A DNA stretch of 64,000 bases from Thermodesulfobacteriota bacterium (lineage in GTDB: Bacteria > Desulfobacterota_D > UBA1144 > Nemesobacterales > JAJCZQ01), in contig CBDBDR010000017.1 in assembly GCA_965203965.1 (NCBI GenBank), positions 544,001 through 608,000 on the forward strand, given 5' to 3'. This document shows, piece by piece, positions 57,560-60,124 of this stretch. The notes beneath the pieces are model-generated. The model was not told the origin of the DNA and did not search any database. It saw nothing but the letters and a program-made list of their open reading frames with translations. The position numbers and the translations under genes were made by a program. Positions within the stretch are counted from its first letter, which is position 1. Each line of letters starts with the position of its first letter.

Positions 57560-58522
57560 ATGAAAAAAAATAACAAAATATTTCCCGTAACACTATTTCA
57601 AGGCACACAGTCCCTTCTCATTGACAGGGAAATAGAAAAGATCAGAGAGATTGAATCCCTTAACTCTCCCGGACTTGATCATTTGACTTTTCATCTGGAC
57701 ACTGACTCAGTTGAGAAAGTAATTAGAGCTGCAAATACCGTTCCAATGTTTGGAGGTCGCAAATTACTGGTTGCCAGAAATGTTGAATCTCTGAATTCAA
57801 AAGAGGTTTCAAAGTTGAATGATTATATTAACACCCCTTCTCCTGACACACTGCTAGTTCTCGTTTCTGAGGGAACGACCAAGCCAAAATTGAAAAAAAA
57901 CAAGAACCTAACAACTGTGAACTTTAATAAGATCAATATGATTGAAAGCAAAATCCAAAAAGAGGCTGAAATACTCGGTGTTAACATTTCAAGGAGGGCG
58001 TGTATGGAAATACACAGGTTGGTAGGTGACGATTTTACCTTGATCAATAACGAGTTGCTTAAAATTTCAAGCTATTTCGGGAATGAAAAATTGATCGATG
58101 AAAAAGACATAGAAAATTTTATCCTGAAAAGAAAAGAGGAAGACGTCTTCAGTTTGGTAAATTCCATTTCCAACGGTCAACTTCAGTCTGCCGTCAAAAT
58201 TCTCAAAAACCTTGAGGATCAGAAATACGAACCTCTTTCAATAGTATCAACTCTGTCATGGCGTATCAGGCAAATCTGGCAGGTGAAAGAGCTTATCAGT
58301 TTGAATAAAAGTGATGATGAAATTATGAAAAAAATGAAAATCTCAAGTGGTGCAGTCTATTACATAAAAAAGCAGGCTGCAAACTTCAGCATTAAATCCC
58401 TTGCAGAAATTACGTCTAAACTGAAGAAAATTGATACTGAACTGAAGTCCTACAATCAAAATAAATACAACTTATTGAGTAGATTTATCGTAAACCTGTG
58501 TAGTGATAGAAGTGATAAATAG
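57560..58522 (+). CDS. holA: DNA polymerase III delta subunit
   Basis: ANTVPMFGGRKLL, NELLK, EDVFSL, D.ELKS; adjacent to rpsT as is common. Confidence 0.85.
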   Translation: MKKNNKIFPVTLFQGTQSLLIDREIEKIREIESLNSPGLDHLTFHLDTDSVEKVIRAANTVPMFGGRKLLVARNVESLNSKEVSKLNDYINTPSPDTLLVLVSEGTTKPKLKKNKNLTTVNFNKINMIESKIQKEAEILGVNISRRACMEIHRLVGDDFTLINNELLKISSYFGNEKLIDEKDIENFILKRKEEDVFSLVNSISNGQLQSAVKILKNLEDQKYEPLSIVSTLSWRIRQIWQVKELISLNKSDDEIMKKMKISSGAVYYIKKQAANFSIKSLAEITSKLKKIDTELKSYNQNKYNLLSRFIVNLCSDRSDK

Positions 58523-58524
58523 AA

Positions 58525-59337
58525 TTAGGATATTTTTTCCCAATTCTCGTTGACCCATTCCTTCAGTTTCAATTTCATTTCTTTAGAGATTGGGTAACTC
58601 TCAATTTTGCTGAGGATTTCTTCTGTTGTTATACCTTGCTCTTTGAATTTCTGGATGATCTTCTGATAAAGCTCATTAAAACCATATTTTGCTATCGCGG
58701 CAGAGATTATAGCTAACGCTACAAGGGAAAGAACTCCGCCAATCATTCCACCCAGACCAATTGCCACAAGAGCAGATATAATGGCAGCACCACCAGTATA
58801 GGCAGACATGTGCACCGCTATGAATAGGACGAGAGCTGGAACTCCGATCCCGGCAATAGTTTCAACTGCTTTATCAATACTAACTGAGTCTTTAAGCTTA
58901 TCTATCAGTTTTGCGACCTCTTTGTCTATCTTGTCTATGACTGCTTTGTCAATACTAACTGTGTCTTTAAGCTTATCCATCAGTATTGTGAGCTCTTTGT
59001 CTATTTTGTCTATGGCTGCTTTGTCAATACTAACTGCGTCTTTAAGTTTATCCACTATACTCATCTCTGCCGGCTGCAAGTCGTGAACTTTTTTTGATAG
59101 TCTAGAAATGTTTCTGGATGCATTCCTTTTATGAATAACGCCTTTGGTTGCAGCTTTGTCAAAAGCAGAGATAATGTCTTTCAACCGCTCACTGGCTTTA
59201 TCGGTATTTTTTTCTTCAATTAAAGAAAGTAATGACTTTGTTTTAGTTTTCAGAGTGGTTTTAACAAAGCTGTTTCTCTCTTTTCTTTTAATGCTCTGTC
59301 TTTGCTTTTTCTTTGCTGATGCTTTTCTTAAACCCAT
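58525..59337 (-). CDS. rpsT: 30S ribosomal protein S20 fused to a repeat linker and a hydrophobic C-terminal domain
   Basis: aa 1-91 are S20 (SAKKKQRQ, DKAATKGVIHKRNASRNISRL); no stop codon; 179 further residues. Confidence 0.88.
   Translation of the reverse strand: MGLRKASAKKKQRQSIKRKERNSFVKTTLKTKTKSLLSLIEEKNTDKASERLKDIISAFDKAATKGVIHKRNASRNISRLSKKVHDLQPAEMSIVDKLKDAVSIDKAAIDKIDKELTILMDKLKDTVSIDKAVIDKIDKEVAKLIDKLKDSVSIDKAVETIAGIGVPALVLFIAVHMSAYTGGAAIISALVAIGLGGMIGGVLSLVALAIISAAIAKYGFNELYQKIIQKFKEQGITTEEILSKIESYPISKEMKLKLKEWVNENWEKIS
58865..59052. repeat. 75-nt imperfect tandem repeat x2.5 (DKLKDxVSIDKA...) inside the S20 fusion
   Basis: ctgcttt(a/g)tcaatactaactg-n-gtctttaag(c/t)ttatc at about 58865, 58940 and 59015. 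Confidence 0.92.
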
Positions 59338-59479
59338 AATTTCTACATCGTCCTGAAAATTAGAGGTTAGTATTTACATTTATTACACATTTTGTCAAAT
59401 TATATTTACTAAAAAGGCAAAAAATAACGTAACAAATTAAGAATAGCAGTTAGTATTATAAATTTTAAAGGAGACCAAC

Positions 59480-60124
59480 ATGAAATTTTTTCTTGATTCT
59501 GCCAACATGAAAGAAATAAAAGATGCTGCCTCAAGCGGTATCCTTGATGGCGTAACAACTAACCCTTCACTTGTATCCAAAGAGGGAGACCAAAAGGAAT
59601 TTAAGAAACTAATAGTGGAGATTTGCGAAATTGTAAACGGACCCGTAAGTGCTGAAGTAATAAGCACAGAGTTTGACAAGATGGTAGAGGAAGCTGAAAT
59701 ACTTGCAGATCTTCATAAGCACGTGGTTGTAAAGATGCCTATGACCGAAGATGGAATAAGAGCAACAAAATTTGTATCAGATAAAGGAATTAAAGTTAAC
59801 GTAACTCTGGTATTCTCAACCACTCAGGCTTTGCTGGCTGCAAAGGCAGGTGCAAAATATGTAAGTCCCTTTGTTGGTCGTTTGGATGACGTGTCATCTT
59901 CGGGAATGGAACTTGTAGAAAACATTGTTACGGTTTATAACAACTATGACCTCAAAACCGAAATACTTGTCGCAAGTGTAAGGCATCCAATGCACTTAGC
60001 AGAATCTGCACTGCTGGGAGCTGACGTTGCAACTATGCCCTACAAGGTTTTCAAACAACTTTACAAGCACCCGCTAACTGACATCGGACTTGAAAAATTC
60101 CTTTTAGACTGGAAGAAAAAATAA
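59480..60124 (+). CDS. Transaldolase / fructose-6-phosphate aldolase family (short type)
   Basis: [46 protein letters not shown]. Confidence 0.93.

Follow-up and report, generated by a model that had tools for sequence, protein, structure and literature searches.

A probable recent capture of a mobile membrane-hairpin cassette by the only S20 gene of a sponge-associated bacterium

How a ribosomal protein comes to carry a membrane segment is the question raised by one gene in a 64,000-nucleotide stretch of DNA (the window) from a sponge-associated Thermodesulfobacteriota bacterium (contig CBDBDR010000017.1, positions 544,001 to 608,000). Positions 58525..59337 of the minus strand form a single open reading frame (ORF) of 270 aa without an internal stop, as read from the sequence and the ORF list. 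It runs from ribosomal protein S20 (aa 1-88) through 2.5 tandem 25-aa repeats into a hydrophobic hairpin of 64 aa, rich in Gly and Ala, and ends in a helical tail. An earlier reading, made from the letters alone (the sequence-only reading), had described this frame, its repeats, its hydrophobic stretch and its helical tail, and all of these were confirmed by the ORF list, repeat finders, hydropathy and models. It had also proposed that the layout could anchor 30S subunits at the membrane. The evidence presented here points not to an evolved tether but to a recent capture, polymorphic among strains, of a mobile membrane-hairpin cassette that is probably tolerated by the cell. All of the genomes compared are metagenome assemblies; that of the host (G000) is in 17 contigs and is 99.48% complete.

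By its sequence, the N-terminal part is a bona fide bS20 (59074..59337, minus strand). Pfam Ribosomal_S20p (PF01649) matches aa 6-84 with an E-value of 1.2e-19 (71.2 bits against a cut-off of 29.5) and TIGR00029 scores 62.8 bits against a cut-off of 33, so that both curated thresholds are exceeded. The gene lies at the orthologous locus and AlphaFold models this part as three helices (H2-41, H45-64 and H70-85). In size it departs from the family, which consists of small soluble proteins of ~85-110 aa: the nine relatives have 90-108 aa, while this protein has 270 aa and the 64-aa hydrophobic stretch. PF01649 has one match in the genome, the fused frame itself, and a search for the normal rpsT that might have been present elsewhere found none in this 99.5%-complete genome. 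The complete S20 of the sequence-only reading therefore stands on the Pfam and TIGR00029 matches; its end at E91 does not, since the host part ends at Q88, as an unfused 91-aa allele terminating in VHDLQATK-stop makes clear.

One alternative is that the fusion is an artefact, with a chimeric assembly or a sequencing error joining two separate genes. The genome is metagenome-assembled with strain heterogeneity (contig C13), and homopolymer runs lie near both ends of the added module. Contigs of four public runs (X6, X9, X13 and X14) were compared over 58000-59800. A 13-kb contig from run X6 spans this whole interval with 0 differences. A 1000-nt contig from run X9, an RNA library from a different study, equals 58292-59291 with 0 differences and takes in the end of the neighbouring gene holA, the entire module, the junction and the A-tract; such RNA-library contigs place the fused sequence in the library and are not proof of a single transcript or of its level. 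The contig from run X13 bridges the holA/module boundary and that from run X14 covers 58562-59046 with one substitution. No indels or joints were reported in the run contigs over 58000-59800. The same S20 junction is present in an independent assembly (P0154, 283 aa), the S20 frame is conserved through VHDL, and a related in-frame insert is found in two other assemblies. Because both junctions are bridged without difference by contigs of other runs, from several studies, the fusion is not an artefact of the assembly or of the A-tract, and an artefactual origin is considered extremely unlikely. The fusion is thus real, and the genome has no S20 gene besides it.

The fusion is not fixed. Four proteins make up the 90%-identity cluster to which the 270-aa protein belongs: two are fused and two are S20 proteins of 91 aa (P0153 and P0155). 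These two match the fused protein over aa 1-88, one exactly and the other with one substitution. Where they end in VHDLQATK-stop, the fused ORF reads VHDLQPAEMSIV, i.e. VHDLQPAE-MSIV, with the junction codons P89-A90-E91 (59065..59073, minus strand) in place of the ATK-stop of the 91-aa allele. The peptide spanning the junction is VHDLQPAEMSIVDK. A comparison of these alleles shows that the fusion is polymorphic among near-identical strains. A metagenome scan with the 91-aa allele returned 80 loci, the best at 61% identity, and a near-identical empty-site contig was not among them. Three relatives within the same family, G001, G002 and G003, have a stand-alone S20 of 91-99 aa. Across nine relatives the S20 tail beyond the last helix or matched part varies from 1 to 19 aa, which suggests that the insertion site is permissive. 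Word-limited searches reaching close relatives only found no other S20 fusion or long S20, so the same fusion was not recovered in related genomes.

What follows the junction is a complete frame in its own right. The captured cassette (58525..59064, minus strand) has 179 codons, with its own ATG at 59062-59064 and its own TAA at 58525-58527; only 2 nt separate this TAA from the stop codon of holA, which is convergent. It opens with the 2.5 tandem 75-nt (25-aa) repeats at 58865..59064 (minus strand), located by repeat finders and translation. Tandem Repeats Finder gives a period of 75, 2.5 copies and 91% matches at 58865-59054, and a separate repeat search finds three 75-nt copies at 100/91/60%. 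These results, with the run contigs, agree with the sequence-only reading that the repeats are diverged and not an assembly duplication. The protein units of 25 aa each are MSIVDKLKDAVSIDKAAIDKIDKEL, TILMDKLKDTVSIDKAVIDKIDKEV and AKLIDKLKDSVSIDKAVETIAGIGV, the third being the start of the hydrophobic part, the module core. The repeats arose by duplication of the cap helix at the N-terminus of the module itself (xxLxDKLKDxVSIDKAV) and make up a helical spacer. In the whole-protein model the spacer helices are H89-126 and H131-151, at low to middling confidence (block means 50-84).

The Gly/Ala-rich hydrophobic hairpin comprises aa 157-220 (58678..58869, minus strand). Every 19-aa Kyte-Doolittle window above 1.6 is within aa 156-220, and the model has two long helices with an 11-residue helix between them. 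The amphipathic helical tail, aa 221-270 (KYGF...YPISKE.KLKLKEWVNENWEKIS; 58528..58677, minus strand), was placed by alignment and model and is the best-conserved portion of the module. AlphaFold pLDDT is 89.9 for the module alone and 81.9 for the whole protein. The core is 41.5% G+C compared with 37.8% for the window, which is not distinctive.

Two runs of A lie close to the ends of the cassette. The first is an A7 tract in the codons S81-K82-K83-V84 (59089..59095, minus strand, reading as T on the plus strand). Its frame is taken to be the S20 frame because relatives likewise read SKKVH(D/N)L, and the suspicion of a miscounted tract hiding a stop was checked and set aside, as the run contigs show the same tract length and no stop. 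The second is an A6 run directly before the stop (58533..58538, minus strand), which is one A shorter in P0154; for want of that A, P0154 reads past the stop, antisense into the end of holA. These runs bear on the idea that the gene makes two products, slippage of RNA polymerase or the ribosome on the A7 giving an S20 of normal length, a start at M92 giving free module, and the full fusion being minor. The sequence A AAA AAA G precedes the junction by 8 codons, both alternative frames at the tract stop within 9-13 codons, the cassette ATG is retained, and the second run differs by one A in another assembly. Yet the A7 is a single synonymous change (AAG>AAA) from the G001 sequence, which is TCAAAGAAAGTT at this site, and such runs are ordinary at 38% G+C. 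There is no Shine-Dalgarno-like spacing before M92, and only one tract length occurs in the contigs, though contigs cannot show minority forms. Two products are accordingly quite unlikely to be the explanation.

The module has many relatives. A search of 1.84 billion cluster representatives with residues 140-270 (P0001) gave a family of 353 clusters at E<=1e-3, 145 of them at E<=1e-10. Most members are proteins of 110-130 aa consisting of the module alone. In a Pfam scan of 36 of the 150 listed family proteins no Pfam model fell on the module itself. In longer members the module may be C-terminal, behind HTH_3, MerR, ankyrin repeats or coiled coils, or N-terminal, before CN_hydrolase, PAS-GGDEF-HD, Mrr_cat or HRDC. 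The earlier suggestion of a gene fusion between S20 and a small stand-alone membrane protein is thus upheld by the family search and the Pfam scan. Ten positions are near-invariant in a 94-sequence alignment (A2): G26, P28, G43, A45, L51, G55, G58, G62, G80 and K116 (P0001 numbering), the first eight of which are in the hairpin. The window copy retains all ten and covers the whole core, residues 157-270 being aligned. The module model runs from a cap helix through helices of 24, 11 and 36 residues, the last of these hydrophobic in its first half, to two short helices; in P0001 numbering the three in the middle are H15-38, H44-54 and H59-94.

The family is undescribed in the sense that it has no model of its own in Pfam, NCBIfam, PHROGs or PADLOC. 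Foldseek with the module model gave 0 matches at E<=0.001, the best Z in a wide structural search with VIA-align was 6.3, within the background for helical models, and a sequence-profile search of the PDB matched designed helical repeats only, with no dynamin-like chain among the matches of the family profile. In the Protein Atlas the module matches unnamed hypothetical clusters from Cyanobacteriota and Bacillota. The PADLOC model for the dynamin-like LeoBC has weak partial matches at positions ~460-570 of 601 in 12 of the 94 aligned members (best E 3.9e-7), and other weak PADLOC matches are to PDC-M09A (16/94) and BnzA (11/94); the window copy itself has no match to PADLOC models at E<=0.01. 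One family member has a weak Pfam match to a bacterial dynamin-like helical domain. With no module match in PHROGs below E 0.003 and none in viral contigs searched with alignment A4, there is no sign of a phage origin. A single protein (P0008) used as query against genome contigs returned no loci, whereas the narrower alignment A4 was successful as a query, and a full-text search of the literature found nothing relevant.

The hairpin is predicted to be an integral membrane element with both ends on one side, because cytoplasm-type domains are found at either end in relatives and the 11-residue middle helix is too short to cross a bilayer; hydropathy and the helix lengths agree with such a hairpin.

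In other genomes the stand-alone module gene is found in variable DNA beside toxin-antitoxin, transposase, restriction and methylase genes. A 1.3-kb block (L118:5761-7058 and L123:3033-4330) is 96.8% identical between a Treponema and an Anaerovoracaceae metagenome-assembled genome and holds a stand-alone module gene and a MazF-type toxin gene, with transposase fragments nearby. In three loci from Treponema/Spirochaetales (L112, L113 and L124) the module gene is directly upstream of two radical-SAM genes, the first of which encodes a SPASM domain in two of the loci (L113 and L124). Four loci from Poribacteria (L107, L108, L110 and L114) have a longer module protein followed by an overlapping gene for a PhyH-family dioxygenase.

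Within the lineage of the host the distribution is patchy. The module is present in 3 of 101 genomes of the order by protein search and in 3 of 120 of the phylum by profile, with one copy in the genome of the window; neither the order nor the phylum search found it anywhere in G001 or G002. In G033 it is a stand-alone protein of 233 aa (L006:1189-1890, minus strand), in which tandem repeats of GIGQLESRLDKKIDDAK units are C-terminal rather than N-terminal, in a stretch that is partly masked (X). In G003, of the same family but a sister genus, it interrupts, in frame and near the middle, a molybdopterin/4Fe-4S oxidoreductase with a Tat signal, which from its domain make-up we take to be ActB-like. 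An alignment of orthologues places the insert of 165-166 residues between VSI and SP, in a loop. The orthologues of the window genome (977 aa) and G002 (979 aa) are without it, and P0156 (1142 aa), from a second assembly, has a module insert at the same place as G003.

The G000 and G003 modules are 77% identical in DNA (312/403), the alignment ending ...ATCCTA in the stop codon of the window copy. Their synonymous difference (pS) is 0.397 and their synonymous divergence (dS) 0.56 by the Nei-Gojobori method, whereas host genes of the same two genomes have dS of 1.53 and 2.75 (ActB flanks) and 1.6 (S20). None of 67 windows of 129 codons in ActB has a pS below 0.613. The module dS is far below that of the host genes; the copies are therefore younger than the split of the hosts and have moved laterally. 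In a quick maximum-likelihood (ML) tree of 100 module sequences, in which most of the deeper forks are unresolved, the G000, G003 and P0156 copies form a clade (SH-aLRT 100). This clade is inside a group of 21 rows (support 92) with all seven Candidatus Poribacteria rows and the G033 copy. Candidatus Poribacteria are sponge symbionts too, and their rows closest in the tree are proteins of 223-312 aa, judged by ORF length.

An alternative is that the module was inherited vertically, an ancestral stand-alone gene having been joined to different neighbours by ordinary deletions in two independent fusions. The three copies are indeed each other's closest relatives, and an amino acid identity of 66% is within the range of host proteins (61% for holA between G000 and G001, 73% for the ActB N flank). 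Against this are the low synonymous divergence just described, the lack of linkage between the two host sites, one of which is an insertion into a gene intact in relatives, the absence of the module from G001 and G002, and the polymorphism of the S20 site within a species. Vertical inheritance is very unlikely on this evidence. The divergence and distribution show the module to be a laterally moving, promiscuous and patchily distributed unit, with copies younger than the lineages that carry them.

The copies inside the ActB-like enzyme indicate what becomes of the module after insertion. When G003 and P0156 are compared, the N flank of the enzyme is 93.2% identical (450/483) and the C flank 97.4% (419/430), neither with gaps; the inserts themselves are 66% identical (103/156 aligned columns) with 15 gap columns. 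Nine residues of the Gly-rich turn, together with the conserved Pro, are gone from the P0156 insert. Between G000 and G003 the ratio of nonsynonymous to synonymous divergence (dN/dS) of the module is 0.34 (hairpin 0.54, tail 0.15), compared with 0.03-0.11 for host genes. Inside ActB the module thus resembles a weakly constrained passenger more than something that the enzyme requires.

Two further observations concern the same loop. The ActB-like orthologue of G001 (L023:1746-2228, minus strand) has an unrelated in-frame insert of 161 aa, ~30 residues upstream of the G003 point, in which a charged, repeat-like lead is followed by a hydrophobic core, and which also has a tandem LIEKLGPL repeat; among the 120 genomes of the phylum it is present in one, and the Protein Atlas has no match to it. 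In G000 itself, the strain-variant contig C13 (6.5 kb; L125:3300-6548) is 99.66% identical to C17:466643-469890, the 3249 nt compared showing 10 mismatches and 1 gap. One of its A runs has 7 A where C17 has 6, breaking the frame, and the contig ends 2 nt after the codon that holds the module in the G003 enzyme. This coincidence is a hint; no insert-bearing ActB variant of the window's species is found in the protein cluster, all full-length members of which have 977 aa.

Coupled with the strain polymorphism, these observations suggest the following course of events. The final three codons of the single rpsT would have been lost together with the stop and the spacer behind it, and a laterally arrived cassette of ~540 bp sits in their place. 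The cassette is a complete small gene of the widespread ~115-aa membrane-hairpin family, its cap helix tandemly duplicated 2.5 times. The junction is in frame, and therefore translation from the rpsT start would give S20, a ~65-aa helical spacer, the hairpin and the helical tail. The hairpin is predicted to enter the inner membrane with both ends cytoplasmic. S20, plus any 30S subunit incorporating the fused S20, would be held there by a spacer of up to ~10 nm, a figure obtained by arithmetic from the ~65 helical residues. S20 binds 16S rRNA early in assembly, and subunits carrying the fused protein would therefore be tied to the membrane. Membrane tethering of S20 or the 30S subunit is thus a plausible physical consequence of the fusion. 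The capture is read as recent and either neutral or mildly costly, a strong promoter also serving to express the cassette, rather than as a tether that evolved for the purpose. The fusion may serve the cell as a tether, may be tolerated without being of use, or may be circumvented through slippage or an internal start.

That the tether is adaptive, for example by favouring the translation of membrane proteins in a small symbiont cell, is the proposal closest to the sequence-only reading. The fused gene is the sole S20 gene in the genome, its module is intact with all of the family-conserved residues, the repeat expansion makes a long helical spacer, and the fused form is present in RNA-library contigs from two studies. 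However, near-identical strains have a plain 91-aa S20, the relatives G001, G002 and G003 have a stand-alone S20, and the word-limited searches found no other S20 fusion. The fusion partners elsewhere in the family are unrelated to ribosomes. The same module, lateral by its synonymous divergence, is decaying in an unrelated enzyme of a sister genus, where it evolves ~10x faster than the surrounding enzyme and some of the Gly motif is missing. Neither the tether origin nor the evolution of the layout for that purpose is borne out by these findings, and an adaptive tether is considered unlikely.

Several points weigh against a recent and merely tolerated capture. The ten near-invariant residues kept in the window copy, and the tail dN/dS of 0.15, would also fit a selected function. 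Where the cassette ends, and whether the change was a gain or a loss, are deduced, the empty 91-aa allele being known as a protein only. A repeat search of the ends found no terminal inverted repeat, target duplication or mobility gene at the cassette. The runs were compared as contigs and not raw reads, so that minority alleles and A-tract heterogeneity would be invisible. The hairpin in the Tat-exported G003 enzyme would face the opposite way from that of S20, and the topology argument based on fusions therefore does not cover all cases. Capture of a mobile cassette nevertheless remains the probable explanation of the locus.

It is possible, as a tentative extension, that a new kind of protein-coding passenger element is represented here: a cassette of ~500 bp without its own mobility gene, moving between co-resident sponge symbionts and within lineages, surviving in frame in the tolerant loops or tails of highly expressed core genes, such as rpsT and the gene of the ActB-like enzyme, and anchoring host proteins that were soluble or peripheral to the membrane. 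The ActB loop would be a recurrent landing site; a second, unrelated hydrophobic insert lies 30 residues away in G001, and contig C13 breaks 2 nt from the insertion codon.

A promoter-like site upstream of rpsT (TTGACA-18-AATACT, 10/12; 59369..59398, minus strand) is a consensus match only, four such sites having been found compared with 4.0 expected in shuffles. The convergent neighbour of 320 aa (57560..58522, plus strand, from the ORF list) is presumably holA, encoding DNA polymerase III delta. G001 has the same holA-rpsT-transaldolase order, with a 97-nt spacer between rpsT and holA compared with 2 nt between the stops in the window. The sole terminator-like hairpin in the region (59071-59083, plus strand) has a 5-bp stem followed by a T7 run and is on the holA strand; it sits exactly at the S20/module junction, and one was found where 0.7 would be expected by chance. 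A 10-nt perfect inverted pair (58698-58707 and 59063-59072) was rejected as an element end, being about what chance would give by a rough estimate. Rfam had 0 matches on 58000-59800.

Several things follow from this locus. If the sole S20 is membrane-anchored, the organism is a natural experiment on whether a bacterium can live while its small subunits, or its pool of S20, are bound to the membrane. Three stages in the life of one small membrane-hairpin gene are on view: on its own, newly joined to a core gene, and in decay within a second core gene. It is a datable case of promiscuous membrane anchors spreading laterally among the symbionts of one host habitat and creating new protein architectures, and it defines a widespread protein family without a Pfam or NCBIfam model.

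Compared with known systems, the protein resembles bS20 in its 88 N-terminal residues, its rpsT locus and its status as sole copy, and differs in its 270 aa and membrane hairpin. To the unnamed hairpin family it aligns over the whole core; here that core is fused to a ribosomal protein and the cap helix is expanded. The likeness to LeoBC-type dynamin-like proteins lies in the weak partial matches of 12 of the 94 relatives, the window copy not included, to positions ~460-570, taken to be the paddle or membrane hairpin, and the window protein has no GTPase domain by Pfam or NCBIfam. The mitochondrial ribosome tethers Mba1/mL45 act at the exit tunnel of the large subunit. They share with the proposed arrangement a ribosome permanently held at an energy-transducing membrane, an analogy of working only; here it is the body of the small subunit that would bear the anchor, which is a strain-level variant.

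As in-frame passengers in coding genes, the Rickettsia palindromic elements and inteins are the closest comparison, foreign stretches being tolerated at surface loops or tails of conserved genes. The cassette differs from the palindromic elements in being single-copy, ~500-540 bp, not palindromic and encoding a folded membrane module. An intein was rejected: the G003 insert starts NVLQ and ends KTSY before SP, in place of the N-terminal Cys/Ser/Thr and C-terminal His-Asn that mark inteins, the window module ends at a stop, no Hint family was found in the Pfam scan, and the model is all helical. With respect to miniature inverted-repeat transposable elements and insertion sequences, no terminal inverted or flanking direct repeats were found at the deduced ends, and the genome has one copy. 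The phenomenon is one of promiscuous domain capture, or of an in-frame passenger, and may represent a distinct class of protein-coding insertion cassette.

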